Positions 10,178-47,090 of a stretch of DNA of 64,000 bases are shown here, one piece after another. Within the stretch, counting starts at the first letter, position 1. Every line of letters starts with the position of its first letter. Origin of the DNA: a virus. The position numbers were made by a program, and so were the translations under genes. Where the stretch lies: IMG/VR virus record IMGVR_UViG_3300045988_165974, positions 32,001 to 96,000 of that record; one strand, given 5' to 3'. The notes under the pieces are model-generated. The model searched no databases. It was not told the DNA's origin and was given only the letters and a program-made list of their open reading frames with translations.

Positions 10178-10193
10178 ATAACTGGGATTGAAC

Positions 10194-12519: not shown

Positions 12520-12525
12520 ATATAA

Positions 12526-12597: not shown

Positions 12598-12602
12598 ATG
12601 CT

Positions 12603-14114: not shown

Positions 14115-14425
14115 AAACAGATATTCCTTTCATTAAATTAAATTAATAACTCAGCTACACAAGTAACTGTTATGCGTACTATACTGTACTGTTACCATAC
14201 AGTTGTTTCGACTTCAACTCGACAATGATATAAAGGCTTTTTACATATACATTACAAGGCTGTTCTTACTCTGACCTAACTTAAATGTATACGATAGAGC
14301 AATGGTCTGTTGCGTCAACCAAAGGTATCATGACTTAAATATCGTAGCCATCATTTCTGTGGCTTAGTCTGGTGAACCATTTAACAGAAGCCCATAAGCT
14401 TTAGCTTGTGGGTAGTTCACTTAAT
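14115..14425 (-). ncRNA. putative IscB omega-RNA scaffold
   Basis: About 300 nt directly 5' of iscB, locally GC-richer and ORF-free. It has several helices, e.g. GTGAAC..GTTCAC and CCCACAAGCT-AA-AGCTTATGGG. The position matches published IscB omega-RNAs. Confidence 0.65.
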
Positions 14426-14695
14426 TATTCCTGGAAGGAGATTTTTCAATTACAATGCACAAATATTATTAATAAAATCCTTTTTTTATCATAAACATAA
14501 TTGCTGTATGTGCATTTAATTATATTAACTTTAAGAAGGTACTTATCAAGACACTAAACATTATAAATATGAAACTTCCTAGAATTGTTCAATTTATTTT
14601 GAGGATTTGAACCTCTAAAGCACTTGTTTATTGACTTATTTACCTATTTGAATTAATTGCTGTAAGTGTCTTTTGAATGTATATTTTTAGAACAG

Positions 14696-14811
14696 GACGG
14701 GAAGTAGGAGTCGAATCTACAACCTACGGCTTAAATGGCAAATTAAAATGCTGTTAGTGTATCCCTTCTATACACATATTACGTTGCTCTACCCGTTGAG
14801 CTATTCCCGTC
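14696..14811 (-). ncRNA. tRNA-His-like gene with about 45 extra nt and degenerate anticodon and T arms
   Basis: G-1 plus ACGGGAA/TTCCCGT plus C73 (His signature). D arm GCTC-AACGGGTA-GAGC. Then hairpin GTGTAT-AGAAGGG-ATACAC followed by TAACAGCATT. Only 3 bp of anticodon stem remain. Confidence 0.5.
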
Positions 14812-14818
14812 ATAATGT

Positions 14819-14936
14819 TGCCGAAGAATAGATTTGAACTATTATCCTATAGCTTCCCTGTTTGAAATTGCTGCTTATGTATTTATCAATACATCTATTT
14901 ATTGGCTATTGCTCCAACCATTTGAGCTACTTCGGC
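14819..14936 (-). ncRNA. tRNA-like gene with a 51-nt anticodon loop
   Basis: Perfect acceptor GCCGAAG/CTTCGGC, D arm GCTC/GAGC, anticodon stem ATAGC/GCTAT and T arm AATAG-TTCAAAT-CTATT. The loop holds hairpin ATGTATT-GATA-AATACAT plus AAGCAGCAAT. Confidence 0.65.
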
Positions 14937-26133: not shown

Positions 26134-26403
26134 CTAATCCTTCATGCTATCATATATATTACTTATAGTCTTTTTAAAAGCATTATCTTTATTCTCTTTT
26201 GGTTTAGTAACCTTTGTAACAGGCTTACTCTTTTGAGGGGGAGTAGCTGCTAAAACTACCCCCTTAAGCATAAACTTTCTTTCTAATAACATTCTTTCAA
26301 GTGCTTGACTGTTTGTAGAAAGTCCATTTTCCTCTTTATAAGCTTTCACATCCTCATACAAGTCTTTAGAGAGAGAATAACTAGTCGTTATCTTCTTCGC
26401 CAT
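26134..26403 (-). CDS. parR: ParR-like centromere-binding protein (probable ribbon-helix-helix)
   Basis: 89-aa basic protein that overlaps the parM stop. This is the typical parM-parR order. Confidence 0.5.
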   Translation of the reverse strand: MAKKITTSYSLSKDLYEDVKAYKEENGLSTNSQALERMLLERKFMLKGVVLAATPPQKSKPVTKVTKPKENKDNAFKKTISNIYDSMKD

Positions 26404-27334
26404 CTATCTCGCCTCCAAACTGCTCTGAACAGATGTAATAAAGTCCTTCGGCAGTAGCCATTTGAGGATTCTCTATCATCTTATATTTATTGTCAAAATT
26501 AAGTCTCATAGAAGTTCCTCCTGCTATTCTAATATCCATTTCATCTGTATTCTTCCAGATGTCAGAAATGTATTGATTAAGTTTTTCTGACATAAGTTCA
26601 TAAGCAGATTCTTTCATTTCTTCTGTGGCTGGCTCTGTATCGAAGTCTATTTCAAAAGTTTCCTTAGAAAGATTCTTCTTCATAAGTCTATCTCTAACTA
26701 TCTTTAATGCATCTTTATTCCCATATTCCAATGTAGAAGATAAGCTATCTCTAAATCTACCCCCTCTTTCAAAATAACTAAATTCAGAAGTATTAAAACC
26801 AACTGAAACAAGACCAACATGATTATGCTCATTATCTATAAGTCCTTTGTATCTAAGTCCCATAAGAGCAGCATCTGCTTCTCTGAATATATTTATATTA
26901 TTTACAGTAACTCTCTTAGTAGTATTATTTATAGCATCTTGTATTTCAAATGTTTTCCCTTGATATTTATTTATTACCTTATGCATCTCTGATTTTCTAA
27001 AACTCTTATTAGGGACTCCTAGCATGATAGAAACATTATCTTCAACTGCTGCTTGAAGAAGTCCTGTAACAAATAATAATTCAGCAGTTCTTGAAACCTT
27101 AGAATCATTGTTATTTCTGATTGGTGAATAGCTTTCTTTTTCAGATAGTTCTCCTACAAAATACTTCTTACTTTCATATCCTATACAGATAGGAGCTTCA
27201 TATTTATCAAAATCTATATCTTCTGTTCTTCCATCTCCCACGATACTTTTGAATACAAATTCTTTAGGTTTGTTGTTAATAACTGTAAATATCTTTACAA
27301 ACCCTCTCCCAATATCCATACCTATATATTGCAT
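26381..27334 (-). CDS. parM: ParM/Alp-family actin-like segregation ATPase
   Basis: MQYIGMDIGRGFVKI (phosphate-1), VGFNTSEF and IAGGTS (actin-fold motifs). ATG at 27334 follows a GGAGG RBS; the track ORF's upstream extension is unlikely. Confidence 0.75.
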   Translation of the reverse strand: MQYIGMDIGRGFVKIFTVINNKPKEFVFKSIVGDGRTEDIDFDKYEAPICIGYESKKYFVGELSEKESYSPIRNNNDSKVSRTAELLFVTGLLQAAVEDNVSIMLGVPNKSFRKSEMHKVINKYQGKTFEIQDAINNTTKRVTVNNINIFREADAALMGLRYKGLIDNEHNHVGLVSVGFNTSEFSYFERGGRFRDSLSSTLEYGNKDALKIVRDRLMKKNLSKETFEIDFDTEPATEEMKESAYELMSEKLNQYISDIWKNTDEMDIRIAGGTSMRLNFDNKYKMIENPQMATAEGLYYICSEQFGGEIDGEEDND

Positions 27335-27362
27335 ATTATTACCTCCAATATGTTTTTCTTTA

Positions 27363-27391
27363 ATAGTAGCATATATAATTTTTATTCGCAA
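27363..27391 (-). promoter_or_regulatory. parM promoter
   Basis: Minus strand reads TTGCGA, a 17-nt spacer, then TACTAT. It abuts the iterons. Confidence 0.5.
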
Positions 27392-29441: not shown

Positions 29442-29470
29442 TTGACAATATAAAGTATATAAGCTACAAT
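29442..29470 (+). promoter_or_regulatory. early promoter 1
   Basis: TTGACA, a 17-nt spacer, then TACAAT. An AAAACTTTT-rich UP-like tract lies upstream. Confidence 0.6.
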
Positions 29471-29542
29471 ATAAGAAACAGTACTTTTAATATATTAGTT
29501 AACAGGCTTTTAAAAAAAGTTTAAAAACTTTTAAAAAAGTAG

Positions 29543-29571
29543 TTGACAGAGGATTAAAAAAGTACTATACT
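29543..29571 (+). promoter_or_regulatory. early promoter 2
   Basis: TTGACA, a 17-nt spacer, then TATACT, with the same UP-like tract upstream. Confidence 0.6.
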
Positions 29572-29637
29572 TAAATTAATAAATGAGTTGATAGTTTTAC
29601 ACTAAAAACTTATTTATTACATATTAACCATAGGAAG

Positions 29638-29667
29638 TTGACTTATTCAACTACTATACTTTATAAT
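29638..29667 (+). promoter_or_regulatory. early promoter 3
   Basis: TTGACT, a 17/18-nt spacer, then TATAAT. Confidence 0.5.
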
Positions 29668-30042
29668 AAAGGGGACTAGTAAAGTATTAGTTATCTTATA
29701 TCCTCACCTAAACAACTTGTAGCTTTATAACTTGTACGGTAAAATAAAATATTCGACAACTTTGGGAAATCCTTCAATATACCGACTACTCTTTTATGTA
29801 GTAGCTCATTTCAGTATATTAAAAGCCTGTATCTTGAAGTGCTTAAGAGTGCTTGGAGTTAGGAGTATAAGAGTAACAACTCTTTGGATTAAGAATAAAT
29901 TTTTATCTTTAACCTTTTAACCCTTTTTAAAGGTGTGTGGGTTACCTATTGAAAACCCACTAACATTTTAAAATTAATCTTTGGGTATAAGGTGACAACT
30001 TTATACTCAAACACTAGTTTTAAAATAAAAGGGGGATATAAA

Positions 30043-30246
30043 ATGATAAATTTAAGAAAAAAACCAGTAGAGACTAAAAATTATAGTGTGGAATTAGACA
30101 ATAACAACTCTATGTTATTTAAAAATTTCTTACATGGATTAGGAGCAACTTTTGAAACAAGTTCATGTTATAATCTTGTACATTTTAGTTTAAATTTAAC
30201 TCATAGACAATATGTAAGAGTTAGTAACTTTTTAGATTTATTATAA
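30043..30246 (+). CDS. small hypothetical protein
   Basis: ATG 7 nt after AAAGGGGGA. The track ORF's upstream extension lacks an RBS. Confidence 0.5.
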   Translation: MINLRKKPVETKNYSVELDNNNSMLFKNFLHGLGATFETSSCYNLVHFSLNLTHRQYVRVSNFLDLL

Positions 30247-30254
30247 TTATTCAA

Positions 30255-30335
30255 GGGACTTTAAAAGTCCCTTCATGGTATTAGTGGTTGATAACCTTCT
30301 CGTGGTGATACCGTTTAAACTAATTTTAATCAACC
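30255..30335 (+). ncRNA. cap hairpin + HDV-like ribozyme candidate (copy A1, most divergent)
   Basis: Hairpin GGGACTTTAAAAGTCCC. P1 GGTATTA/TGATACC, P2 GGTTGAT/ATCAACC, L3 TTCTCGT, J4/2 CTAA. It lacks the G1.U wobble and the GG for P1.1. Confidence 0.5.
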
Positions 30336-30362
30336 AAATTTTAAGATAAAAGGGGATAAAAA

Positions 30363-30494
30363 ATGAAAAAATCATTAATTTTAGCTTTAATCATAACTAT
30401 ATTTTGCATGAGTTTAACTTGCTATCAAGTTTCAAGTGATGAAATTCAAGCAACTTTTTTAAACGGATTATTTGATATTACAATTTCATTATAA
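30363..30494 (+). CDS. small secreted/lipoprotein-like peptide (43 aa)
   Basis: ATG after AAAAGGGGA. MKKSLILALIITIFCMSLTC... Below the ORF-track length cutoff. Confidence 0.45.
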   Translation: MKKSLILALIITIFCMSLTCYQVSSDEIQATFLNGLFDITISL

Positions 30495-30507
30495 GGGGGA
30501 TAAAAAA

Positions 30508-30807
30508 ATGAAAACTATGCTAGATATTAATACAAGTGGAGATTATAGAATACATTTAGGACTTGACAAAGGATTTTTAGTAGTGCTAGATAATCAACCT
30601 GTAAATACTATAGGAGTTAAACCAATAAATTGTTGTATTTATAAATTTCCTGAAAATGCGAACTTTGAAGAGTCTGAAATTGTTGAAAATATGCAAGACT
30701 ATATTTTCGTTGCTCCAGTTCGATTTTATGTAGACTTTGATAAAATTGACACTAACATGATGGAGAAAATAACAACTCGAGCATTAAATCATGTTGGTAG
30801 ATATTAA
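30508..30807 (+). CDS. small hypothetical protein
   Basis: ATG after AAGGGGGA. Confidence 0.5.
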   Translation: MKTMLDINTSGDYRIHLGLDKGFLVVLDNQPVNTIGVKPINCCIYKFPENANFEESEIVENMQDYIFVAPVRFYVDFDKIDTNMMEKITTRALNHVGRY

Positions 30808-30812
30808 ATGAG

Positions 30813-30886
30813 GGGACTTTAAAAGTCCCATATGGTAACAAGAGTCAACCTCCCCGTGGTGTTACTGGATAACCAACTAATGACTC
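30813..30886 (+). ncRNA. cap hairpin + HDV-like ribozyme candidate (A2)
   Basis: P1 GGTAACA/TGTTACT (G1.U), P2 GAGTCA/TGACTC, P3/L3 ACC-TCCCCGT-GGT, GG for P1.1, CTAA. Predicted cut at 30833/30834. Confidence 0.65.
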
Positions 30887-30914
30887 AAATATAATAAAGT
30901 AAAGGGGATTAAAG

Positions 30915-31256
30915 ATGATGTTAAAAGAAAAATTAAACGAAATGAAAGCTAATTCAGAAGGAATAAAACTATTTGTAATTGACGATATTTTAAAATTCAA
31001 CGAAAGTGATGACGATATAAAAGCATATATTAACGATGCATTAACTTATGGTTGTTCTAGTGGTTGTGTATCTTGTTTAATCTACTATGTAGATACTCAA
31101 AAATTCTTTGATAAATATCAAGACGAAATTCTTGAAATGCTTGAAAATGCTAAAGTTGAATATGGAATAACTTTCGAAATTAATTCAAATAATCTAGCAT
31201 GGTTTGGCTATGAAGAGACTTTACGAAACATAGCAACTGAATTAGGTATTTGGTAA
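30915..31256 (+). CDS. small acidic hypothetical protein
   Basis: AAAGGGGA RBS, ATGATG start. Confidence 0.55.
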   Translation: MMLKEKLNEMKANSEGIKLFVIDDILKFNESDDDIKAYINDALTYGCSSGCVSCLIYYVDTQKFFDKYQDEILEMLENAKVEYGITFEINSNNLAWFGYEETLRNIATELGIW

Positions 31257-31262
31257 AATGAA

Positions 31263-31345
31263 GGGACTTTTAAAGTCCCTAAATGATAACAAGAGTTTAC
31301 CTCCCCGTGGTGTTATTGGAAACAAGGAAACTTGGCTAAAAACTC
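31263..31345 (+). ncRNA. cap hairpin + HDV-like ribozyme candidate (A3)
   Basis: P1 GATAACA/TGTTATT (G1.U), P2 GAGTTT/AAACTC, the same L3, P4 CAAG-GAAA-CTTG, GGCTAA. Predicted cut at 31284/31285. Confidence 0.65.
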
Positions 31346-31374
31346 AAATTTAAGATAAAAAGGGGATAAAAAAG

Positions 31375-31929
31375 ATGATGAAAAATTTAGTAAATTTAAA
31401 CGAGTTTGAATTGAATAGGGATAATGTAAAAGCTATACTTGAAAATAATTCAGAGTTTAGAAATAGCCTTGAAAGTGATTATTTTGATAGTGAAGTTTAT
31501 TATTATACAACTGAGTTATTAGACAGAATAGATGGCATAAACTGGAGAATAGATTTTGGTTCAGTTGAAATTTGGAAAGGTTTTAGCTCAAATATACTTG
31601 ATATTGTAAAAAGCATATTAGATATTGATTATTTCTTTATAAATGATACGGATATTCTTTTACAAAAATTAGAAGTTTTCTATAATGCTTTATACACTTG
31701 TCCACAGTATGGTAATCGTTTCGATAGACTAGAAGGAAGAACAGAGCAACTTTTAGAAATATTATTTACTAAAATAGAAGATAGCATTAAATCAAGTTTA
31801 GATTACATGGATGATATTGATAATCTTACAGACTGGTATATTGATTCAGGCTATGATGAAAGTTTAACTTGGAGTGGAATGTATATCAATCCAAAGACTT
31901 TCGAATTGTACGAGTTAAAACATTTATAG
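31375..31929 (+). CDS. acidic hypothetical protein
   Basis: 184 aa. RBS AAAGGGGA, ATGATG start. Confidence 0.55.
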   Translation: MMKNLVNLNEFELNRDNVKAILENNSEFRNSLESDYFDSEVYYYTTELLDRIDGINWRIDFGSVEIWKGFSSNILDIVKSILDIDYFFINDTDILLQKLEVFYNALYTCPQYGNRFDRLEGRTEQLLEILFTKIEDSIKSSLDYMDDIDNLTDWYIDSGYDESLTWSGMYINPKTFELYELKHL

Positions 31930-31971
31930 AAATGAAGGTAAAAATCATGACAAGGGCTGCGGTCCTTGTCT

Positions 31972-32025
31972 ATTTGTAAACCTACCGAGGGCGGTCCAAA
32001 GTCCGTGTAAAAGGTGATGGCAAAT
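31972..32025 (+). ncRNA. twister ribozyme candidate (C1)
   Basis: P1 ATTTG/CAAAT, T|AA, P2 ACCT/AGGT, P4 GCGG/CCGT with loop TCCAAAGT, then GATGG. Predicted cut at 31977/31978. Confidence 0.7.
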
Positions 32026-32045
32026 TATAAAGGGGGATAAAAAAG

Positions 32046-32213
32046 ATGAAAAAAAGAATTATAGCAATTTCAGGATTATTAGTAATAGGAATGATGGTAT
32101 TTCATAAGCCATTAAGCTTAAAAGCTATGGATATAGTAGACTATTATGGAGAAAAAACTGGTAAAAATGTTGTATCCGTGATAGACTTTTTAAATGAAGT
32201 TTATTATCTATAA
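32046..32213 (+). CDS. small membrane/secreted peptide (55 aa)
   Basis: ATG after AAAGGGGGA. Hydrophobic N-terminus. Below the ORF-track cutoff. Confidence 0.45.
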   Translation: MKKRIIAISGLLVIGMMVFHKPLSLKAMDIVDYYGEKTGKNVVSVIDFLNEVYYL

Positions 32214-32218
32214 ATGAT

Positions 32219-32303
32219 GGGACTTTCAAAGTCCCTATATGGTAGTAATTGGTTCGCCTCCACGTGGCACTACTGGAAACAAGTTTACTTGGCTAAGAAC
32301 CAA
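32219..32303 (+). ncRNA. cap hairpin + HDV-like ribozyme candidate (A4)
   Basis: P1 GGTAGT/ACTACT (G1.U), P2 TTGGTTC/GAACCAA, L3 TCCACGT, P4 CAAG-TTTA-CTTG, GGCTAA. Predicted cut at 32240/32241. Confidence 0.65.
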
Positions 32304-32323
32304 AAAAAGAAGGGATAAAAAAG

Positions 32324-32644
32324 ATGATAAAAAAGATTGAAGAAAAAATTAAAGAATTAGGCTTCGTTGTAGGTTGTTACAATGATAAAATTGATGACAT
32401 TTTAACTCCAGGAGCAACACGTAAAGTTTGTGGGTTACTAGAAGAAGAATACACAGACGAATTGATGCGAATTAGAGGTAAACTATATAAAGTCTGTATA
32501 GCAACTGTTGACAATGAAAAAGATATCAATATATATCATGCATTAGACTATTACAGACAATACGGAGAAGAACATCTGGATAATGACTATGAAGAAAAAA
32601 TGATGACTTTAAAGGAATATAAAGCTTTAAAAATGATGGTATAA
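32324..32644 (+). CDS. small acidic hypothetical protein
   Basis: RBS AAGGGA. Confidence 0.5.
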   Translation: MIKKIEEKIKELGFVVGCYNDKIDDILTPGATRKVCGLLEEEYTDELMRIRGKLYKVCIATVDNEKDINIYHALDYYRQYGEEHLDNDYEEKMMTLKEYKALKMMV

Positions 32645-32723
32645 GGCAAAAAATTCGAAACCGTGGGTTTTCCACGGTCTACAAATGATAGGCTAATTGT
32701 ACTGACGAGATAGCCTTTGTCTT
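32643..32723 (+). ncRNA. type II hammerhead ribozyme candidate (B1)
   Basis: Open stem II AAGGCAA/TTGTCTT. CGAAAC-stem III-GTC. Stem I TACAA/TTGTA. CTGACGAG. Loop I/stem II pseudoknot TAGGCT/AGCCTA. Predicted cut at 32679/32680. Confidence 0.75.
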
Positions 32724-32754
32724 TTGTAAAAATGATGATGAAAAGGGGATAAGA

Positions 32755-33042
32755 ATGATGAGAGAACATGCAATATATAAAGATTATATCAGATATATAG
32801 GAGATGGATTTAATTTTTCAGAATTATATTCATATGAAGACGGTAAAGAATTACATTTCAATAAATTTATGGATTATTGGGAAGACTCTAAAACTGGTAG
32901 ATTTTATCGTTGGAAAAATTCAAAAGATAATAAAATTATAAAAGAATGTCATGAAGAAACGCTTGATTATTTTGGATTTAAATCTAGTCGACTAAATGAT
33001 GATAAAGAATCTTTAGAAGATGAAGAATATCTACCATTCTAA
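32755..33042 (+). CDS. small hypothetical protein
   Basis: RBS AAAGGGGA, ATGATG start. Confidence 0.5.
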   Translation: MMREHAIYKDYIRYIGDGFNFSELYSYEDGKELHFNKFMDYWEDSKTGRFYRWKNSKDNKIIKECHEETLDYFGFKSSRLNDDKESLEDEEYLPF

Positions 33043-33044
33043 TG

Positions 33045-33126
33045 AAGGTAATAAATTCGAAACAAGGGATTTTCCCTTGTCTGTAAATGATAGGCTCTTT
33101 ATACTGACGAGATAGCCTATTACCTT
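33045..33126 (+). ncRNA. type II hammerhead ribozyme candidate (B2)
   Basis: Stem II AAGGTAAT/ATTACCTT, stem III AAGGGA/CCCTT, stem I TGTAAA/TTTATA, CTGACGAG. Predicted cut at 33081/33082. Confidence 0.75.
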
Positions 33127-33153
33127 TACAATAGAAATGAAGGGGGATTAAAG

Positions 33154-33408
33154 ATGATGAAAAATTTAGAGTGTGTATATGATAGCAGAAAATCATTTTA
33201 TGGAAAGGCAAAAGTTGAAACTAATTCAAATGAAGGTATAATTACTTTATATAGCTACGGAACAAAAGTAGCTTGTATAAAAGATGGTAAACCAGAACTT
33301 TTATGGAATGGATATTCCCAAACAACTTACAGACATATAGCCGAATTCTTTAAACAAAATGGTTTTATGGAATATAGTTCAAAAGCAGTAATTCAAACTT
33401 TATTGTAA
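33154..33408 (+). CDS. small hypothetical protein
   Basis: RBS AAGGGGGA, ATGATG start. Confidence 0.5.
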   Translation: MMKNLECVYDSRKSFYGKAKVETNSNEGIITLYSYGTKVACIKDGKPELLWNGYSQTTYRHIAEFFKQNGFMEYSSKAVIQTLL

Positions 33409-33416
33409 TTTTTTAA

Positions 33417-33445
33417 TTGACATTTTTACACAAAAATGATACTAT
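33417..33445 (+). promoter_or_regulatory. internal promoter of the early operon
   Basis: TTGACA, a 17-nt spacer, then TACTAT. Confidence 0.6.
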
Positions 33446-33448
33446 TAA

Positions 33449-33551
33449 ATCAAGAGGAGTAATCCCCTGGTTCTTAATGCAGTAGCTAATAGCTAGAGGT
33501 CGCAACTCCTCATAAAACATATGCAGAGCGAGAAAATGAAAGGGGATAAAG
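33449..33551 (+). promoter_or_regulatory. structured 5' leader (riboswitch-like?)
   Basis: GAGGAGT...ACTCCTC and GAGG..CCTC are competing helices. TCCCCT is complementary to the downstream SD AGGGGA. See the finding. Confidence 0.4.
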
Positions 33552-33998
33552 ATGATGAAAATAAAAGAATTATATGAAAACATTAGTAACTGTTTAGATT
33601 GGATTAAAATCAATAATAGTGATTTAAAAGACATATTTGAAGGTGCTAAGGCATTAAGAAGAGGAATTCAAGTCCTAGAATATGACAAAGAAATGATAGG
33701 CAAAATTGATGATAACTATTTTATTTCAAATTTTATTATGGATATTTTAGAAAAAAATCTTCCAGAGTACCAATTAAGTTTAGACATGATTGATGACATT
33801 TTAGAAGAACTAGATATAGATGATGATACTTTAGAAGAATTAGATGAAAGCGAATTTGAAAATCATGTTATAATCAAAAATACTTTCGTAGATGTAAAAG
33901 AGTCAATTTCTTTTGATGATTACTGGGATGGATTAGACTTTGATAGTCTTTTAAAAAGATTTGAGTTTGCAAAAGAGGAAATTGGTTACTTATTATAA
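33552..33998 (+). CDS. very acidic hypothetical protein
   Basis: 148 aa, rich in D/E. Confidence 0.55.
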   Translation: MMKIKELYENISNCLDWIKINNSDLKDIFEGAKALRRGIQVLEYDKEMIGKIDDNYFISNFIMDILEKNLPEYQLSLDMIDDILEELDIDDDTLEELDESEFENHVIIKNTFVDVKESISFDDYWDGLDFDSLLKRFEFAKEEIGYLL

Positions 33999-34090
33999 GT
34001 TTAAATTCGAAACAGGGAATACAGGAAATCCTGTATTGCTTGTCTATAAGTAACAGGCTGCTTGTACTGATGATGATAGCCTAAGCTTAT
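33995..34090 (+). ncRNA. type II hammerhead ribozyme candidate (B3)
   Basis: Stem II ATAAGTTTA/TAAGCTTAT, a 14-bp stem III, stem I TATAAG/CTTGTA, CTGATGA+T. Predicted cut at 34044/34045. Confidence 0.7.
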
Positions 34091-34115
34091 AAATATAACG
34101 ATAAAAGGGGATAAA

Positions 34116-34373
34116 ATGATGAACAATTTAAAATGGCAAAAACTTATAAGTAATTTGGATACAGAAGAAGGTAGACAAGAGTTTATAAAAATTGCTTCTT
34201 CTGGAATGTATTCAGGTGAAAATATTGATGGTGAAAAAGTCATAACCATTGTTTCTCAGGGAGTGGGAATGATAGTAAAAACTAAACATCACGAAAAGCC
34301 AAACTGGTGGGAATGTGTTGATTATGACGAACTTGGCTGCATGGAGTGTGTAACATACGAAAGAGCCGAATAA
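34116..34373 (+). CDS. small hypothetical protein
   Basis: RBS AAAGGGGA, ATGATG start. Confidence 0.5.
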   Translation: MMNNLKWQKLISNLDTEEGRQEFIKIASSGMYSGENIDGEKVITIVSQGVGMIVKTKHHEKPNWWECVDYDELGCMECVTYERAE

Positions 34374-34376
34374 ATT

Positions 34377-34468
34377 GAAGGATAAATTCGAAACAAGTGA
34401 TACGGGTTTTCTGTATTACTTGTCTATAAGGTTAAGCTACTTATACTGACGAGATAGCTTAATCCTTC
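34377..34468 (+). ncRNA. type II hammerhead ribozyme candidate (B4)
   Basis: Stem II GAAGGAT/ATCCTTC, stem I TATAAG/CTTATA. The pseudoknot covaries here to TAAGCT/AGCTTA. Predicted cut at 34424/34425. Confidence 0.75.
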
Positions 34469-34491
34469 TAAAATGAAAGGGGATAAAAAAG

Positions 34492-35019
34492 ATGATGAAA
34501 AAAGAAAACATTGAAAGATTTTTAAAGTTATTAAATTCAGAAGAAATAAGCGATAAAATAAAAGATATGTATCTTGACTTACTAGAGAGTCATATAGATG
34601 ATGACCTTGGAGTCAAAATAGAAATCATATTAAGCCTAGATGGAGAAGTAGATAACAGATTTTTTACAGGTAATTCAACTAGAATGGACGTATATGAAGG
34701 CAACTCAATTGTTGTGGCAGCCATCAGACATGATGTAAATATTACTGATGAAATGATGGGAGAAATAGTCGATGTATTAAGTAATGATGTATATGAAGAA
34801 TTTGTTCAATATCTTTATGGATTAGACGATATTCCAGAAGAAGAGCAAGAAGAATATCTTGAAGAAAATCTTACTTGGGATAATTTCTATGACTTTGATT
34901 CTATAATATATGGAGAAATTCAGAGAGAAGCTTGGGAAAACAATGTTGACTACTATGGAAATGAAGAAATTGACCAAAAGCTTTATGAATGTATTCAACA
35001 ATTAGAAAATCTTTTATAG
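34492..35019 (+). CDS. very acidic hypothetical protein
   Basis: 175 aa, rich in D/E. Confidence 0.55.
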   Translation: MMKKENIERFLKLLNSEEISDKIKDMYLDLLESHIDDDLGVKIEIILSLDGEVDNRFFTGNSTRMDVYEGNSIVVAAIRHDVNITDEMMGEIVDVLSNDVYEEFVQYLYGLDDIPEEEQEEYLEENLTWDNFYDFDSIIYGEIQREAWENNVDYYGNEEIDQKLYECIQQLENLL

Positions 35020-35034
35020 GAGCAGCAATGCTCC

Positions 35035-35095
35035 ACTCTAAACTCACTTGGCACATGTCAAAAGGTCCAAAGTCCTTGAAAAGAGTGATGGGAGT
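35035..35095 (+). ncRNA. twister ribozyme candidate (C2)
   Basis: Preceded by hairpin GGAGCA-GCAA-TGCTCC. P1 ACTC/GAGT, P2 ACTC/GAGT, P3 TGGC-ACAT-GTCA, P4 AAGG/CCTT with loop TCCAAAGT. Predicted cut at 35039/35040. Confidence 0.7.
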
Positions 35096-35156
35096 AAAGG
35101 CGAAGTTACCAAAATGCTCGTCTAAATATAATGGTAACAATAAAAAGGGGGTAAAT

Positions 35157-35471
35157 ATGAAGGTATATTTAGGAAATGCATTTAGTTTGCAAATGATAAG
35201 TACAACAAAGGATACAGACATAAGAGTTTCACCAGTTGATGTTCAAACTGTAAAAGATAGTGATTTTATATCAATTGTAGGTCATCAAGATACTGCATCT
35301 GTAGTTGGAAACATCTTAGGAAAAGATGTACCTTGCAATCGAGTTTCTGTTAGTTTGAGTAAAGGAGATATTTTATATGTAGCACAAATTGTTGGTGGCA
35401 GACTTCCTGTGGGAGCTACTTGTTTACCAAACGGCTTTAAATTAACATTCTTGAAAGTAACTATCTTGTAA
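35157..35471 (+). CDS. DUF1874 / AcrIII-1-family ring nuclease (cyclic tetra-adenylate degrading anti-CRISPR)
   Basis: MKVYLGNAFSLQMI...IVGHQDTA...NRVSVSLSKGDILYVAQ...GRLPVG parallels SIRV1 gp29 as I remember it (KVYLANAFSINML...SIGHDST...NRVEIKLEKEDKLYVVQ...RLEEG). ATG at 35157 follows AAAGGGGG. Confidence 0.8.
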   Translation: MKVYLGNAFSLQMISTTKDTDIRVSPVDVQTVKDSDFISIVGHQDTASVVGNILGKDVPCNRVSVSLSKGDILYVAQIVGGRLPVGATCLPNGFKLTFLKVTIL

Positions 35472-35537
35472 ATAATATGAGGTTTGGGAGTCCTTTTAAA
35501 ACTCCCCCTAAATATGAAAATGAAGGGAGAAATAAAA

Positions 35538-35675
35538 ATGGAAGAAAAAAGAGAAATGACAATAGAAGAAGAATTTGAAAAACATATGAAGACTATGGAA
35601 GGACATGTATGCTACGGTTGTAGTGGTTGTAAATTTGCTTTCTATGGAGTTTGTCCATATGCTTTAGAGGGGTAA
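35538..35675 (+). CDS. small Cys-rich peptide (45 aa)
   Basis: ATG after AAGGGAGA. Contains CYGCSGC...C. Confidence 0.4.
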   Translation: MEEKREMTIEEEFEKHMKTMEGHVCYGCSGCKFAFYGVCPYALEG

Positions 35676-35683
35676 AACCTCTC

Positions 35684-35746
35684 TTGCTTTAAACTAGCCA
35701 CCAGAAGGTGAGAGTCCAAAGCCTCTGTGAATAGTGATGGGAGTAA
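35684..35746 (+). ncRNA. twister ribozyme candidate (C3)
   Basis: P1 TTGCTT/GAGTAA (with G.U pairs), P2 ACTA/TAGT, P3 CACC-AGAA-GGTG, P4 AGAG/CTCT with loop TCCAAAGC. Predicted cut at 35690/35691. Confidence 0.7.
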
Positions 35747-35766
35747 ATAAAAGGGGGTAAACGATA

Positions 35767-35967
35767 ATGATGAAGAATGAAAATAATTTTGAAAGGATAA
35801 TATGTGATAGCTTATGGGACATAAAACAGAATTATCCAAATATTGAATTGTCTAAACATCTATTCTATATAGACACCTTTGAAAGATTAGGATATGGCAA
35901 AAAAGGAATAGAAATAACTTTAAATAACAATGATAAGTATATTATTACTAAAGTTGAAAATGATTAA
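35767..35967 (+). CDS. small hypothetical protein
   Basis: RBS AAGGGGG, ATGATG start. Confidence 0.5.
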   Translation: MMKNENNFERIICDSLWDIKQNYPNIELSKHLFYIDTFERLGYGKKGIEITLNNNDKYIITKVEND

Positions 35968-35968
35968 T

Positions 35969-36063
35969 ATAGTCTAAATTCGAAACAGAGGAAAGAATGA
36001 AGGTTCTTTTCTTTGTCTATAATAAGATAGGCTCTTTATACTGATGATGATAGCCTAGACTAT
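35969..36063 (+). ncRNA. type II hammerhead ribozyme candidate (B5)
   Basis: Stem II ATAGTCT/AGACTAT, stem I TATAA/TTATA, CTGATGA+T. Predicted cut at 36017/36018. It is the last element before the operon terminator. Confidence 0.7.
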
Positions 36064-36205
36064 TATAAAAGGTTAGATAAAATGCTATCAAGAACTCATG
36101 AAAGTGAGTGTTGAATATATTATCATTTTTTGGGAGAGGGTTGCCCTCTCCTATCCCCAATATAGTAGATAAATGATAGTGATATCATTAAATATATATT
36201 ATGTA

Positions 36206-36236
36206 ATCTCTCCAATTGAGAGGTTATTTTTTTTTA
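36206..36236 (+). terminator. intrinsic terminator of the early operon
   Basis: CTCTC-CAATT-GAGAG followed by T10. Confidence 0.7.
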
Positions 36237-37291: not shown

Positions 37292-37579
37292 ATGAAATAT
37301 AGAATATGGTGGATACCGCAAGTAGGATATGAAGGTACTTTTTATGTACCTGTAAATTCTCCAGAAGAAGGATTAAAAATGATGTCAGTTTTAGGAGCAT
37401 ATGATTTATTTCAATTAAAGAATAATATTAAACCAGACTTTTCAAATACAGGTGGCTTAGAAGTCTTTGAAAACGGAGAATGGGTAGATTACTATGACGA
37501 AGACGGCAGAGATATAGATGAACATTTTGAAGAAGATGTGGATATGCAAGACTTTATAGAAAAAGTTTATAATTTTTAA
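37292..37579 (+). CDS. hypothetical protein
   Basis: 95-aa ORF with a GGAGGAG RBS. Confidence 0.5.
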   Translation: MKYRIWWIPQVGYEGTFYVPVNSPEEGLKMMSVLGAYDLFQLKNNIKPDFSNTGGLEVFENGEWVDYYDEDGRDIDEHFEEDVDMQDFIEKVYNF

Positions 37580-37613
37580 AAGGAATAATTACAAAAGGGG
37601 TGGGGGTAAGACT

Positions 37614-38453
37614 ATGAAACAATTAGAGGATTTAACAGGAATGAAGTTTGGACTATTAACTGTAATAGAACTCGACCATAGAGAAAATGGTCACTCATAT
37701 TATAAATGCAAATGTGAGTGTGGCAATGAATGTATTATATATTCATATAGCCTTAAAAATGGGAATACAAGAAGTTGTGGCTGTTTAAGAAAAAAGGAAT
37801 CAGAAGATTTAACTGGTAAAAAATTTGGTATGCTTACAGCTATAGAAAAGGTTAAATCTAATGATGATAGTCATAAAAGCTATTGGAAGTGGCAATGTGA
37901 GTGTGGTAATCAAAAAATTATAAGAGCTGACTCAGTTAAAAGTGGTTACGTAAAGAGCTGTGGTTGTTTAAATAAAAAAAATCAACTTGATATTCCAGAA
38001 GGTAGTAGATACGGGAAACTTACAGTTATTAAAAAAGTAGGACAAAATAAACAAAATTATATTATGTATAAATGCAAATGTGATTGTGGTAATACAGTAA
38101 TTGTTAAAGGTTCTAGTTTATGTAGGGGAGCAACTCAATCTTGTGGATGTATAGCTACAGAACGTATTAAAAAGATGCAGCCTATTGCAAAAGACGTCGG
38201 AAGATATGCTGGAACTAAAATTGGTATTATTAGTAATAATAAACTGAATAGGAACAACACTAGCGGAACAAAAGGTGTTTACTACATTAAACAACGTGAT
38301 AAATGGAGAGCCGCTATAGGGTTTAGGGGTAAAACTATACATTTAGGAGAGTTTAAAAACAAAGAAGATGCTATTGAAGCTAGAAAAAAAGCAGAATTAA
38401 AATATTTCAAGCCAATAATAGAAGAATATAACGAGATTAAAGGAAATAATTAA
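37614..38453 (+). CDS. free-standing homing-endonuclease-like DNA-binding protein: three Cys-cluster repeats + AP2 domain
   Basis: Three LT(V/A)I...C(K/E)C(E/D)CGN...SCGC repeats. The C-terminal TSGTKGVYY...WRAAIGFRGKTIHLGEFKNKEDAIEARKKAE resembles an AP2/ERF-type domain. No catalytic motif was seen. Confidence 0.5.
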   Translation: MKQLEDLTGMKFGLLTVIELDHRENGHSYYKCKCECGNECIIYSYSLKNGNTRSCGCLRKKESEDLTGKKFGMLTAIEKVKSNDDSHKSYWKWQCECGNQKIIRADSVKSGYVKSCGCLNKKNQLDIPEGSRYGKLTVIKKVGQNKQNYIMYKCKCDCGNTVIVKGSSLCRGATQSCGCIATERIKKMQPIAKDVGRYAGTKIGIISNNKLNRNNTSGTKGVYYIKQRDKWRAAIGFRGKTIHLGEFKNKEDAIEARKKAELKYFKPIIEEYNEIKGNN

Positions 38454-39759: not shown

Positions 39760-40707
39760 ATGAGTAATTGTTATAAAGAGTTTTTAGGATATATGAAAGA
39801 TGTGCAAGGAGTTGATAATAAAACTCTAGTATGTTACGAAAAAAATTTAAAAGACTTTAACGAGTATATTTTTGGTGGGAAAGCAGATACTACTTTTGAA
39901 GAAATAGCAAACTTAAAAGTATCTGAAATACAAACAAAATGGCTCAATAGACTTAAAGATGAAAAAGGATATAAATCAAATACCTTAAACAACCGCATAA
40001 TTACACTTACAAGACTTTACACATATATGGTAGGAGAAAACTATACTACTGTAAATAAAGGCAAACTAATACCTCATTACAAAGGCGACAAGAAAGTTAA
40101 AAAAGAAATATCAACTGATGATTATATATCTTTATTAGAAGAACTTAGAAAAAATAGAGATAAAAACTTCACTAGTCTTAGAAATTGGTTTATGGTAGAA
40201 TTCTTTTTAGCAACTGGACTTCGTAGAGCGGAAATCATAGCATTAGACATCGAAGATGTAAATATTCTTACTGGTGAAATAAAAGTCACTAGAAAATATG
40301 ACGAAGGTGTTAAATTTGGTAAAGAAAGAATAGAGTATCTTCCAGAAATACTTTTAGATGATTTACACTATTATCTTTCACATAGATTAGACATAGAAAC
40401 AGATAGTGATGCTTTCTTTATTTCTACTCATAAAAAAAGAATGTGCGCATCTAATATCAATAAGCTGCTTAATAAGATAGCAGATAATAACGGCATGAAA
40501 ATACACCCTCATATGCTTAGAGCGGGATTTTCAAGCAATACCATTAATAGTGGTAGGGTAGAATCATATGAAGTCGCAGAAGCGATGGGACACAGTAATA
40601 AGACTACTACTTTGAACTATTATCATAAGTCTAATACAGAAGTATTAAAGAAAGTTGCCAACAGTAATATGATATTTGACAAAAGACAAGATGATAATGT
40701 AATATAA
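39760..40707 (+). CDS. tyrosine recombinase / integrase (XerC/D-like)
   Basis: TGLRRAEIIALDIEDV (Arg I), HPHMLRAGF (H-x-x-R), GHSN (His) and TTLNYYH (Tyr). Confidence 0.85.
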   Translation: MSNCYKEFLGYMKDVQGVDNKTLVCYEKNLKDFNEYIFGGKADTTFEEIANLKVSEIQTKWLNRLKDEKGYKSNTLNNRIITLTRLYTYMVGENYTTVNKGKLIPHYKGDKKVKKEISTDDYISLLEELRKNRDKNFTSLRNWFMVEFFLATGLRRAEIIALDIEDVNILTGEIKVTRKYDEGVKFGKERIEYLPEILLDDLHYYLSHRLDIETDSDAFFISTHKKRMCASNINKLLNKIADNNGMKIHPHMLRAGFSSNTINSGRVESYEVAEAMGHSNKTTTLNYYHKSNTEVLKKVANSNMIFDKRQDDNVI

Positions 40708-45733: not shown

Positions 45734-46903
45734 TTGCTAAAGAGTTACAAAACGGAAATAAACCCAACACAGGAACAAATACAAAAGATAAATAAAACAA
45801 TTGGAACTTGTAGATTTATTTATAATTTTTACATCGCTCATAATAAAGAACTCTATAACAAGGGCGAAAAATTTATGACGGCAAAATCATTCAGTGTTTG
45901 GTTAAATAATGAATTTCTACCAAATAATCCGAATTATTCATGGATAAAAGAAGTAAGTTCTAAATCAGTTAAAAAATCTATGGAAAATGCTTATACTGCT
46001 TTTAATAAGTTTTTTAAGAAACAAAGTAAGTTTCCTAGATTTAAGAAAAAGAATAAATCTGATGTAAAAATGTACTTTGTAAAAAATAATCCAAAAGATT
46101 GTTTCTGTGAAAGACATAGAATTAATATTCCTACTCTTGGATGGATTAAATTAAAAGAAAAGGGATATATTCCTACTACTAAAGACGGATATGTAATTAA
46201 AAGTGGTACGGTTTCTTGCAAAGCTGGAAGATATTATGTATCAGTTTTAATTGATACTTCTGATACAGAAAAACCACAATTAAATGACTTTGGATTAGGA
46301 ATTGATTTAGGTGTTAAAGAATTTGCGGTAATTAGTAATGGAACTATAAAGAAAAATATAAATAAAACTGCTAAATTAAAAAAAATAGAAAAACAATTAA
46401 AAAGAGAACAGCGTTGCCTATCGAGAAAATACGAAGGATTAAAGAAACGCAACAATAAAATGAAAGGAGAAGCCACTAGGCAAAATATTAAAAAACAAGT
46501 CTTAAAGGTACAGAAACTTCATCAAAGAATGGATAATATTCGTACTGATTATATCAATAAATGTGTAAATGAGATAGTGAAAACCAAGCCATCTTATATT
46601 ACCATTGAAGATTTGAATGTAAAAGGAATGATGAAGAATAAACATCTCTCTAAGGCAGTTGCTTCACAGAAATTCTATGAATTTAGAACTAAACTTGAAA
46701 CAAAATGCAAAGAATTAGGAATTGAATTAAGAATTGTAAATAGGTGGTATCCATCGAGTAAATTGTGTCATGAATGTGGTTGTATCAATAAAGATTTAAA
46801 ACTTTCTGACAGAGAATATATTTGTGGATGTGGATACCATGCTGATAGAGATTATAATGCAAGTCTTAATTTGAGAGATGCAATATCCTACAAAATAGCA
46901 TAA
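45734..46903 (+). CDS. tnpB: TnpB RNA-guided nuclease (IS200/IS605 OrfB family)
   Basis: RuvC D (GIDLGVKEFAV), E (ITIEDLNVKGM), Zn finger CHECG...CGCG, and DRDYNASLNL. TTG start. Confidence 0.9.
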   Translation: MLKSYKTEINPTQEQIQKINKTIGTCRFIYNFYIAHNKELYNKGEKFMTAKSFSVWLNNEFLPNNPNYSWIKEVSSKSVKKSMENAYTAFNKFFKKQSKFPRFKKKNKSDVKMYFVKNNPKDCFCERHRINIPTLGWIKLKEKGYIPTTKDGYVIKSGTVSCKAGRYYVSVLIDTSDTEKPQLNDFGLGIDLGVKEFAVISNGTIKKNINKTAKLKKIEKQLKREQRCLSRKYEGLKKRNNKMKGEATRQNIKKQVLKVQKLHQRMDNIRTDYINKCVNEIVKTKPSYITIEDLNVKGMMKNKHLSKAVASQKFYEFRTKLETKCKELGIELRIVNRWYPSSKLCHECGCINKDLKLSDREYICGCGYHADRDYNASLNLRDAISYKIA

Positions 46904-47090
46904 ACAAGCATTTGTAGGTATGTACCGATGGCTTTAGTCGGGAATTTACGACTGTGGACTGTACAAGAACTTGTGAGTAGTGTATTACTTTGTAATCACA
47001 AAAGCATACAGGATGAAACAGTAAGAAAAGTTTGTGAAAACTTTCAATATCTCGATATGGGTATATTTGTCCATATTTTGAGTGGCAGGA
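46780..47090 (+). ncRNA. putative TnpB omega/reRNA scaffold and right end
   Basis: ORF-free, GC-richer stretch overlapping and following the tnpB 3' end. Hairpin CCGATGGCTTTAGTCGG (46925-46941) and AATTTACGAC..TGGA, also seen after the second tnpB. Ends are uncertain. Confidence 0.45.

Follow-up and report, generated by a model that had tools for sequence, protein, structure and literature searches.

We analyzed a stretch of 64,000 nucleotides (nt) of viral DNA, positions 32,001 to 96,000 of IMG/VR record IMGVR_UViG_3300045988_165974 (the window, in what follows), which, judging by its genes, is from a large phage of Clostridia-type hosts. An earlier note on this DNA had described an array of self-cleaving-ribozyme-like elements between genes, and our analysis confirms this observation. 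Thirteen such elements, all on the + strand, lie within 5.8 kb (30.27 to 36.06 kb), and they comprise five type II hammerhead, four type-P1 twister and four hepatitis delta virus (HDV)-like elements. The earlier note had listed 12 copies; its three classes and its numbers of hammerheads and HDV-like elements stand, and the copy it missed is a fourth twister, located after an internal promoter. Based on their sequences and predicted structures, the 13 elements are probably genuine members of three known self-cleaving classes and probably active. We propose further that they would cut the nascent transcript of an operon into insulated cassette mRNAs, and we consider this explanation as a whole, activity included, to be reasonably though not strongly likely. 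For class activity and end chemistry we rely on the literature, according to which self-cleavage by hammerhead, twister and HDV-like ribozymes yields 2',3'-cyclic phosphate and 5'-OH ends.

The elements, with window coordinates and predicted cleavage sites, are as follows. Genes (g1 to g15) are described further below.

30277-30336, + strand: HDV-like 1, divergent; cleavage predicted 5' of G30277; J4/2 is CUAAUUUUA (9 nt)
30834-30886, + strand: HDV-like 2, minimal, lacking P4; cleavage predicted 5' of G30834
31285-31345, + strand: HDV-like 3, with P4; cleavage predicted 5' of G31285; 22.5 bits with the HDV-F-prausnitzii model
31973-32024, + strand: twister 1, lacking P3; cleavage predicted at U31977/A31978; Rfam 42.6 bits, E 5.6e-7
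32241-32303, + strand: HDV-like 4, with P4; cleavage predicted 5' of G32241; Rfam 37.7 bits, E 2.5e-4
32655-32717, + strand: hammerhead 1; cleavage predicted 3' of C32679; the 8-base-pair (bp) stem III is also the hairpin at the predicted end of the g7 mRNA
33057-33122, + strand: hammerhead 2; cleavage predicted 3' of C33081
33471-33534, + strand: twister 2, with P3; cleavage predicted at U33475/A33476; Rfam 36.4 bits, E 3.3e-5
34007-34083, + strand: hammerhead 3; cleavage predicted 3' of C34044; extra U between A9 and G10.1
34388-34464, + strand: hammerhead 4; cleavage predicted 3' of C34424; stem III of 14 bp
35035-35095, + strand: twister 3; cleavage predicted at U35039/A35040; Rfam 45.4 bits, E 8.9e-8
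35686-35744, + strand: twister 4; cleavage predicted at U35690/A35691; Rfam 44.8 bits, E 1.3e-7
35980-36058, + strand: hammerhead 5; cleavage predicted 3' of C36017; extra U after A9

Hammerheads were sought with a descriptor that implements published acceptance rules (PMC3088659), namely the core C3U4G5A6N7G8A9, G12A13A14, the A15.1-U16.1 pair, H17 and intact core-adjacent pairs; we also required loop I and the 3' tail to form a pseudoknot of 4 bp or more. The window has exactly five loci of this description, compared with 0.23 expected per window. All core nucleotides are present in each of the five (GAA-A...U-C, then stem I and CUGA(C/U)GA), and the core-adjacent pairs G10.1-C11.1 and U1.1-A2.1 are intact outright in three. 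The topology is consistently that of type II, with stems I and III closed and stem II open. Stem III has 5 to 14 contiguous bp, stem I has 5 to 8 bp, stem II has 2 bp and the pseudoknot has 6 to 9 bp; stem III of hammerhead 3 spans 14 positions with one G-G mismatch. Type II hammerheads with a stem II of 1 to 2 bp and a pseudoknot between loop I and the 3' tail are known, and the pseudoknot is required for fast cleavage (PMC3088659).

Evidence of covariation comes from an alignment of 12 hammerhead copies from the window and two related IMG/VR contigs (L001 and L002, discussed below). In this alignment, 92.6% of cells pair, compared with 33-48% after the partners have been shifted by 1-3 columns, and 15 pairs have changed on both sides, pseudoknot pairs included; none of 500 shuffles matched the observed values. 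The pseudoknot itself covaries, for example, between AUAGGCU/AGCCUAU and the 9-bp GUUAAGCUA/UAGCUUAAU of hammerhead 4.

Two models provide further evidence. Model R1, built from the hammerhead copies of the window and L001, recovers Hammerhead_II sequences that reach the Rfam gathering score in unrelated viral contigs (among the matches listed, L037 has six, L086 and L011 have two each, and L066 has one). Model R2 drew solely on 12 Hammerhead_II sequences that are certified by the Rfam gathering score and come from unrelated contigs. It picks out exactly the five hammerheads of the window and nothing else, with scores of 22.5-40.7 bits and E-values of 7.5e-8 to 1.1e-3: hammerhead 1 scores 34.9 bits (E 1.6e-6; 79.9 bits with R1), hammerhead 2 31.8 bits, hammerhead 3 40.7 bits (E 7.5e-8), hammerhead 4 22.5 bits (E 1.1e-3) and hammerhead 5 32.8 bits (E 5e-6). 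Because the RNAalifold structure for R2 retained stem I alone, R2 is mostly a sequence model. The other hammerhead loci were drawn from a loose scan of IMG/VR with an ambiguity-code (IUPAC) pattern, many of whose matches are due to chance, and they served only as a pool for models.

Twisters are defined by three essential stems, two pseudoknots, conserved nucleotides in L1 and L4, and a U-A scissile step beside P1 (PMC5408937). A descriptor for this class gives four matches in the window, compared with 0.04 expected. Seven copies from the window and L001 were aligned in blocks, and the result was checked against the sequence; this procedure was adopted because MAFFT had put the 3' halves of two twisters out of register, as well as the P2 strands of the HDV-like elements. 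P1, P2, P4, T1 (3 bp) and T2 pair wherever both partners are assignable, position 1 of T2 being unassigned in twister 2 and its L001 orthologue, and every helix exhibits compensatory changes among the seven copies. For example, P1 of twister 2 is UUCU/AGAA in the window and UUCC/GGAA in L001. Where the twisters depart from the Rfam consensus, they do so on both sides of T1 and T2 pseudoknot pairs. T1, which is CCC/GGG in the consensus, is CCA/UGG or CGC/GCG here (the latter in twister 2), and T2, a consensus GC/GC, is AC/GU or AG/CU. All copies have the U-A scissile step, as UAA 3' of P1, along with an L4 of GUCC(A)AAG(U)CC and an L1 of GA(U)GG.

All four HDV-like copies fit the nested double pseudoknot, with a 6-bp P1 that starts with G, a P2 of 6-8 bp and a P3 of 3 bp. 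P1.1 consists of two C-G pairs, except in HDV-like 1, where it has one C-G pair and a U-U. L3 conforms to U(C/U)C(C/A/U)CGU. The predicted catalytic cytosine of J4/2 is supplied by CUAA, which stands directly 5' of the 3' strand of P2 in three copies, and CUAAUUUUA occupies this position in HDV-like 1. The layout of the HDV-like elements agrees with that of the validated minimal ribozyme drz-Mtgn-1, HDV-like 2 having L3 UCCCCGU and J4/2 CUAA. Compensated differences between the paralogues occur at every P1 position and at most P2 positions. Compensatory changes also distinguish L001 orthologues, from G-C to A-U in P2 of HDV-like 1 (98% identity) and from A-U to G-C in P1 of HDV-like 3. Four matches to a sequence-constrained descriptor occur in the window, whereas 200 simulated windows yielded none. 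A descriptor that used structure only was dropped, as it gave approximately 90 matches across the window and is non-specific in AT-rich DNA.

The class assignments and compensatory changes that the earlier note had proposed thus hold in silico. That catalytic cores and pseudoknots have been retained by compensatory changes argues for selection on the fold.

The array runs through an operon of 15 short genes on the + strand (not 16 open reading frames, as previously counted), from g1 to g15, and is bounded by a divergent promoter zone at approximately 29.4 kb on the left and a terminator at 36.2 kb on the right. The G+C content of the window is approximately 28%. Intergenic gaps measure 66-143 nt, apart from a single gap of 14 nt, which replaces the range of 55-110 nt given before. 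An element in almost every gap had been claimed, correctly: a structured core is present in 13 of 15 junctions, including the one 3' of g15. The two junctions without a core are g2/g3, which is 14 nt long, and g13/g14, which has only the hairpin at 35486-35506. Other features of the operon are these, with mRNA ends as predicted.

29442-29470, 29543-29571 and 29638-29667, + strand: three tandem sigma-70-type promoter-like sites, each with 11 of 12 consensus positions
29675-30042, + strand: 5' leader of approximately 370 nt ahead of g1, structured (minimum free energy -90.9 kcal/mol, z -3.9)
30043-30246, + strand: g1, 67 amino acids (aa), function not recognized
30253-30273, + strand: hairpin as end of the g1 mRNA; predicted cleavage site 3 nt downstream
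30363-30807, + strand: g2 (43 aa, hydrophobic N-terminus) and g3 (99 aa), 14 nt apart
30813-30829, + strand: hairpin GGGACUUUAAAAGUCCC as end of the g2-g3 mRNA
30915-31256, + strand: g4, 113 aa, DUF7222 (E 9.9e-20)
31262-31280, + strand: hairpin as end of the g4 mRNA
31375-31929, + strand: g5, 184 aa, isoelectric point (pI) 4.18
31949-31970, + strand: 9-bp hairpin as end of the g5 mRNA
32046-32213, + strand: g6, 55 aa, hydrophobic N-terminus
32219-32235, + strand: hairpin as end of the g6 mRNA
32324-32644, + strand: g7, 106 aa
32755-33042, + strand: g8, 95 aa
33154-33408, + strand: g9, 84 aa, phrog_4264
33417-33445, + strand: internal promoter-like site with extended -10 TG, 10 of 12 consensus positions, kept in L001 and L002
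33455-33468, + strand: short leader hairpin 5' of twister 2, perfect in L001
33552-33998, + strand: g10, 148 aa, pI 4.08
34116-34373, + strand: g11, 85 aa
34492-35019, + strand: g12, 175 aa, pI 4.05
35020-35033, + strand: hairpin as end of the g12 mRNA
35157-35471, + strand: g13, 104 aa, DUF1874 (STIV B116-like), AcrIII-1 ring-nuclease family
35486-35506, + strand: hairpin in the g13/g14 gap, no ribozyme 3' of it
35538-35675, + strand: g14, 45 aa, predicted to share one mRNA with g13
35666-35682, + strand: hairpin across the g14 stop codon
35767-35967, + strand: g15, 66 aa
36203-36236, + strand: intrinsic-terminator-like hairpin (36203-36227) with T-run, end of the operon

The tandem and internal promoters that had been proposed are borne out by these matches to consensus. 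The region with the tandem sites (29442-29667) is 85% identical to L001, and the g1 leader is 91% identical, with compensatory changes in a hairpin at 29937-29960. The leader also contains a 14-bp hairpin (29980-30011) just 5' of the Shine-Dalgarno (SD) sequence. That a further ribozyme might be concealed in this leader was considered and rejected; no Rfam family matches it at E<=10.

The junctions share a common anatomy, much as the earlier note had described it, with a hairpin upstream and a ribozyme scaffold downstream of each predicted cut. For each of the 13 elements, a hairpin stops 1-8 nt short of the predicted cut, and stem III plays this part at the hammerhead junctions. The predicted 3' product begins within the ribozyme, from the end of which 17-61 nt lead to the ATG. 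The near-invariant translation leader also proves real: the window has nine occurrences of AAAGGGG[AG]T, all of them + strand sequences within the array. A motif around stop codons, likewise noticed before, is present as a AAUGAAGG-like sequence 3' of most stop codons (30247-36000). Besides resembling the AAUGAAAGGGGAU leader that precedes a number of start codons, this motif shares nucleotides with the 5' arm of the GGGAC hairpins. It might represent a scar left by recombination, or else a weak site of SD type. We rejected the possibility that the hairpins are intrinsic terminators, as most lack a T-run and only that at 31949-31970 was flagged as terminator-like, with a weak T-tract.

We propose the following mechanism. 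The operon would be transcribed from the host-type promoters at 29.44-29.67 kb and at 33417, and each ribozyme would cut the nascent transcript, so that approximately 13 mRNAs with one or two cistrons, roughly 260-690 nt in length, would result along with a non-coding tail of roughly 220 nt. Each upstream product would end in a 2',3'-cyclic phosphate 1-8 nt past a stable hairpin (stem III, in the case of hammerheads). Each downstream product would start with a 5'-OH nucleotide inside the folded ribozyme, followed by an A-rich leader and a strong SD (AAAGGGGAU..AUGAUG). The ribozymes would thereby act as RNA-level insulators and end-makers that give each cassette the same 5' and 3' context, whatever its neighbors. 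We infer cleavage in vivo, a role in stabilization or insulation, and early timing of expression from the anatomy of the sequence and from its conservation.

Several junctions have individual features. The genes g2 and g3 are predicted to stay joined as a dicistronic unit. The g13/g14 gap (35472-35537) retains the hairpin and the standard leader and lacks a ribozyme; it may be a decayed junction, or both genes may purposely be kept together. Twister 2 sits approximately 20 nt 3' of the inferred start of the internal promoter, and L001 places an HDV-like copy in the same way. Cleavage by twister 2 would standardize the 5' end of promoter-proximal transcripts, and read-through from upstream would need the same cut. 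At the end of the operon, the predicted cut of hammerhead 5 separates g15 from the non-coding tail (36018-36236), which contains the hairpins ACUCAUgaaagUGAGU and GGGAGAGGGuugCCCUCUCC and is possibly a small RNA.

Arrays of the same kind occur in L001 and L002. With the same descriptors and threading, the L001 array was found to have six hammerheads, three twisters and three HDV-like elements. The cassettes are arranged differently in the two phages: the order is g4, HDV-like, g5 ... g8, hammerhead, g9 in the window and g4', HDV-like, g9', hammerhead, g8', hammerhead, g5' in L001. The classes that precede two of the genes are therefore swapped, in that g9 follows an HDV-like element and g5 a hammerhead in L001, and the reverse is true of the window. 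In comparisons of the window with L001, each ribozyme has remained with the sequence 3' of the gene before it, and the breakpoints of homology lie inside the shared SD leader, which fits homologous recombination. Some elements are more conserved than their surroundings, as HDV-like 1 is 98% identical to its L001 counterpart when its neighbor g1 is 67% identical, and twister 3 is 91% identical in a block with 77% identity. The class swap points to cleavage as the activity under selection, and the function is probably cleavage and end formation in themselves, not something specific to a class.

The shared context of the cassettes would permit their reshuffling by recombination in the leader with expression unchanged. 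We suggest more tentatively, as an idea that falls somewhat short of probable, that the array is a natural plug-and-play system for cassette expression. Its unit would be a gene with its downstream hairpin and ribozyme, units would be joined by the standard leader and recombine there, any of the three folds would serve as insulator, and new early or anti-defense genes would be expressed alike wherever they land. If true, this would give a concrete function to phage hammerhead, twister and HDV-like ribozymes that have long been unexplained.

The same comparison bears on a different proposal, that the hairpin-ribozyme-leader modules are mainly selfish or neutral repeats, spread and homogenized by recombination or gene conversion, that the array is a hot spot of recombination, and that cleavage occurs with little benefit to the phage. 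Near-identical copies exist, such as the hairpin GGGACUUUAAAGUCCC, AAAUUCGAAAC...CUGACGAGAUAGCC and the array-only leader AAAGGGGAU; cassette order differs from that of L001, with breakpoints within the repeats; and homologues of cargo genes occur elsewhere without ribozymes. However, mere repeats would not be expected to place three unrelated folds in the same register to stop codon, hairpin and SD, to keep cores and pseudoknots through compensatory changes, or to be confined, throughout the 64 kb, to this array and to its coding strand. We therefore regard this proposal as unlikely and retain that of insulated cassette mRNAs.

Additional observations concern the distribution of such arrays. 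L001 has a cassette of its own at L001:3975-4948, consisting of a promoter, an HDV-like element and a gene, and its g1 homologue is preceded by a hammerhead; conversely, g2, g6, g7 and part of g3 have no match in L001. In a blastn search of 50,697 phage records, the 6.4-kb array matched none, and a protein search of IMG/VR seeded with g5 gave no relatives. Among the matches listed for other viral loci, there are dense arrays of a single class, with six Rfam-certified Hammerhead_II sequences in 3.5 kb of L037 (1417-4940) and five model matches in 2 kb of L011 (2182-4175), as well as neighbors of different classes, namely pistol and hammerhead in L022 (11373-11835) and twister and hammerhead in L041 (3721-4242). 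In 1.2 Mb of other hammerhead-bearing viral loci, no HDV-like element was found.

A number of findings weigh against the interpretation that we favor. Most directly, no Rfam family attains its gathering score within the array. The absence of covariance-model matches above threshold was among the refuting results named in the earlier note; judged by that criterion, the observation would stand refuted. The four twisters score 36.4-45.4 bits (E 8.9e-8 to 3.3e-5), below the gathering score of 67.2 for twister-P1 (RF03160). The HDV-like elements are all below the gathering score of 44 bits for RF02682, two of them at 37.7 and 22.5 bits and two having no match. Rfam hammerhead models, including Hammerhead_II (RF02276; gathering score 37 bits), are unmatched at E<=10 in searches of 7.3 kb and of a 521-nt stretch. 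As to individual elements, hammerheads 3 (34007) and 5 (35980) need an inserted U between A9 and G10.1 for intact core-adjacent pairs, and the activity of HDV-like 1 (30277) is doubtful, given its weak P1.1 and 9-nt J4/2, so it may be inactive. As to the operon, g1, the first gene, is not preceded by a ribozyme, nor do the junctions g2/g3 and g13/g14 have one. At 11 loci of g4 and g9 homologues in other phage lineages, there is no descriptor match and no match at Rfam gathering scores. Finally, the 5'-OH product of the Bacillus subtilis glmS ribozyme is degraded by RNase J1 (as cited in PMC6765202), and thus a 5'-OH end could destabilize an mRNA instead of protecting it.

Taken at face value, the Rfam result could mean that the spacers are not ribozymes but ordinary hairpins, attenuators or protein-binding repeats that resemble the motifs by chance, and the dozens of chance matches to the structure-only HDV descriptor in AT-rich DNA point in the same direction. 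This possibility is barely credible to us, because the sequence-constrained descriptors find five, four and four matches (hammerhead, twister and HDV-like, respectively) where 0.23, 0.04 and 0 are expected, the independent model R2 recovers the five hammerheads, the twisters have E-values of 1e-7 to 3e-5, and pseudoknot partners covary. A scan of the whole window with Rfam at E<=0.05 also finds matches to ribozyme families only in the array. We argue that the gathering threshold is too strict here, and not that the elements are false. The bit scores of the twisters are low because covariance models cannot score pseudoknot pairs and because P3 is short or missing; the HDV-F-prausnitzii model of Rfam omits P2. 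The extra U is also present in one L001 copy and in 8 of the 12 Rfam-certified Hammerhead_II sequences, and a viroid precedent exists for an extra U after A9. The negative result at the 11 homologue loci is weak, because the window's own ribozymes also miss gathering scores. It does indicate that the genes do not need nearby ribozymes, and that the array is a property of the lineage and not of the gene families. None of the 13 elements passes an Rfam gathering threshold in this AT-rich phage; annotation of such genomes therefore probably understates the number of ribozyme arrays.

The fate of the glmS product also underlies the idea of a timer, in which cleavage would speed the decay of early mRNAs or uncouple their lifetimes and so produce a brief pulse of early or anti-defense expression. 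A 5'-OH made by a ribozyme targets an mRNA to RNase J1 (Collins 2007, as cited in PMC6765202), and the setting is like that of an early operon, with host-type promoters, an AcrIII-1-family gene and a phage sigma factor elsewhere in the window. Decay is not what the ends themselves suggest, however: every 5' product has a terminal hairpin, and the first nucleotide of every 3' product is inside a helix or core, which is a stabilizing design. Moreover, the same layout raised expression in the engineered pRAP system (see below), and its stem-loop was required. We find a timer decidedly unlikely and return to insulation as the preferred account.

Assignment of the source to a large phage of Clostridia-type hosts is based on the proteins encoded in the window, among which are a portal protein, a Clp protease, a sigma factor, an actin-like protein, a DnaB helicase and a primase. 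The portal shares 40% identity with its counterpart in Clostridioides phage phiCD211. This distant relative is cultivable, but its 131.7-kb genome contains no Rfam ribozyme and no R1 hammerhead, which makes it unsuitable as a model. Downstream of the array are genes for a GP17-like superinfection-exclusion protein, an HNH endonuclease and a tyrosine integrase (37292-38453; integrase 39760-40707), and the phage sigma factor and actin-like (ALP) protein are encoded in the other arm (15593-16786 and 26381-27391, both on the - strand). These flanking genes fit a large temperate or plasmid-like phage similar to phiCD211.

Cargo had been thought to consist of anti-defense cassettes, and this description suits one gene. 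Judging by its sequence, g13 is an AcrIII-1-family protein and a putative ring nuclease: it matches DUF1874/AcrIII-1 (Pfam PF08960, E 5.7e-10) and the structures PDB 2x4i (E 2.4e-9) and 6scf (E 1.1e-7), and it has the conserved GH..T motif (IVGHQDTA aligned to SIGHDSTI). For ten other cargo proteins (g1, g3-g5 and g7-g12), PADLOC gave no match, and searches of the cargo with PHROGs and Pfam found only families of unassigned function, g13 excepted. Three very acidic proteins are indeed present (g5, g10 and g12, pI 4.05-4.18). The small secreted peptides of the earlier note correspond to hydrophobic N-termini in two small proteins, g2 and g6. Overall, the interpretation given in that note is partly supported.

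Elsewhere on the + strand, an RlaP-like "RNA repair pathway" nucleotidyltransferase (PF10127, E 2e-16) is encoded near a DHH/DHHA1 phosphoesterase (51614-52579 and 53005-53961). It could be relevant if the phage handles RNA ends with 2',3'-cyclic phosphate and 5'-OH. One might accordingly imagine that the end chemistry is itself the purpose, because it evades a host sensor or nuclease, or because ligation, whether of the RtcB type or by hammerheads, yields circular or spliced mRNAs. An excised cassette RNA would bear both of the ends that RtcB joins, phiCD211 encodes RtcB and KptA, and the window has the RlaP-like gene. The window, however, has no RtcB gene, self-ligation is impossible at junctions of mixed class, and a search by Perreault et al. 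for circularized or spliced RNA made by hammerhead arrays was negative (PMC3088659). We consider such a purpose highly improbable and continue to favor insulation of the cassettes.

Other structured RNAs are found outside the array. A HEARO RNA at 14207-14420 (- strand; 103.9 bits, above gathering) adjoins a 420-aa HNH-type open reading frame (12852-14114), and together they look like an IscB/omega-RNA (IS200/IS605-type) element in the tRNA region of the phage. Each of two transposase/TnpB-like open reading frames (phrog_506; 389 and 371 aa) has a RAGATH-18 RNA 3' of it (74.9 and 67.6 bits; 45734-47024 and 58516-59758, + strand), a pairing that has been described for guide RNAs of IS607 TnpB (PMC11061315). 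The tRNA cluster at 9913-14936 (- strand) has eight tRNA matches according to Rfam and five according to ARAGORN. Two of the Rfam matches, of 118 and 137 nt (14819-14936 and 10194-10330), may carry inserts or introns. Amid the tRNAs is a gene for a 504-aa protein (10477-11991, - strand) with DUF2828 and DUF7788 that matches phrog_850, "RNA-binding protein" (E 4e-127). With the descriptor, no HDV-like (theta-type) element was found beside any tRNA of this cluster.

The array can be compared with several known systems. The nearest are those of Perreault et al. (2011), who reported that multiple hammerheads flank single prophage genes and proposed the processing of single-gene mRNAs (PMC3088659). 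Triple hammerhead arrays cleave in vitro, and one, from A. tumefaciens, also does so in E. coli; one tested array flanks the anti-restriction gene ardA (PMC3088659). Type II hammerheads in one orientation, with the loop I/3'-tail pseudoknot and a stem II of 1-2 bp, flank (pro)phage genes in these arrays as in ours. Unlike them, with three hammerheads per tested array, the present one has 13 elements in 6 kb, and only five are hammerheads, twister and HDV-like elements being in equivalent slots. Twister, hammerhead, pistol and hatchet ribozymes have likewise been reported as neighbors of one another in the vicinity of phage genes, termed ribozyme-associated genes (Roth 2014 and Weinberg 2015, as summarized in PMC6765202, PMC4604425, PMC5408937 and PMC5737381). 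These clusters similarly have different classes within a few kb of one another and of phage genes, with no assigned function; HDV-like members distinguish our array, although such members may already have been reported. The view that no system of this kind had been described must therefore be given up.

For the HDV-like elements, the closest parallel is provided by minimal HDV-like and theta ribozymes of gut Caudoviricetes, for which the drz-Mtgn-1 sequence and the catalytic cytosine of J4/2 are given (Kienbeck et al. 2024, PMC10879173). Shared features are a 6-bp P1 that starts with G, L3 of U(U/C)CCCGU, J4/2 of CUAA, and a P4 that is optional or absent, and these ribozymes, too, occur in phage genomes, some beside open reading frames of unassigned function. 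Theta ribozymes are defined by adjacency to tRNAs, with a proposed role in tRNA 3' maturation, whereas the four elements here are between protein genes, with a hairpin 5' and an SD 3'.

Engineered systems offer a second kind of comparison; RiboJ, for example, is an engineered ribozyme insulator. In pRAP, a stem-loop, twister, ribosome-binding site (RBS) and open reading frame follow one another, the stem-loop proved essential for the upstream cistron, and position effects were gone (PMC9872166). The unit repeated in the array is also stem-loop, self-cleaving ribozyme, RBS and open reading frame, and this layout thus matches an engineered system in which each part proved to matter. Unlike pRAP and RiboJ, which are synthetic, use one class and were tested in E. 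coli, the array is natural, has three classes and is known here from sequence alone. Like glmS, it would have self-cleaving ribozymes in the mRNA leaders of a Firmicute and a 5'-OH on the coding fragment. Unlike glmS, in which cleavage depends on a metabolite and is followed by RNase J1 decay, these elements have no evident ligand pocket, and both new ends are within structure. A likeness to integrons had been suggested, which is apt insofar as cassettes are reshuffled, but breakpoints are in the shared leader, and nothing links the tyrosine integrase (39760-40707) to the array.

Reviews grade the role of the thousands of bacterial and phage hammerheads and twisters as unknown or speculative (PMC6765202, PMC5408937). 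A single operon with three classes in the same register, from hairpin to ribosome-binding leader, is a good test bed for ribozyme function, and its elements are compact natural insulator parts usable in low-GC Firmicutes. With several + strand elements within a few kb, flanked genes and a location in phage DNA, the array has the hallmarks of (pro)phage ribozyme arrays. It belongs to this known arrangement and is not a new category. What seems unusual is its density (13 elements in 5.8 kb), the use of HDV-like elements in equivalent slots, the strictly shared architecture of its junctions, and the evidence for reshuffling in which one ribozyme class has replaced another.

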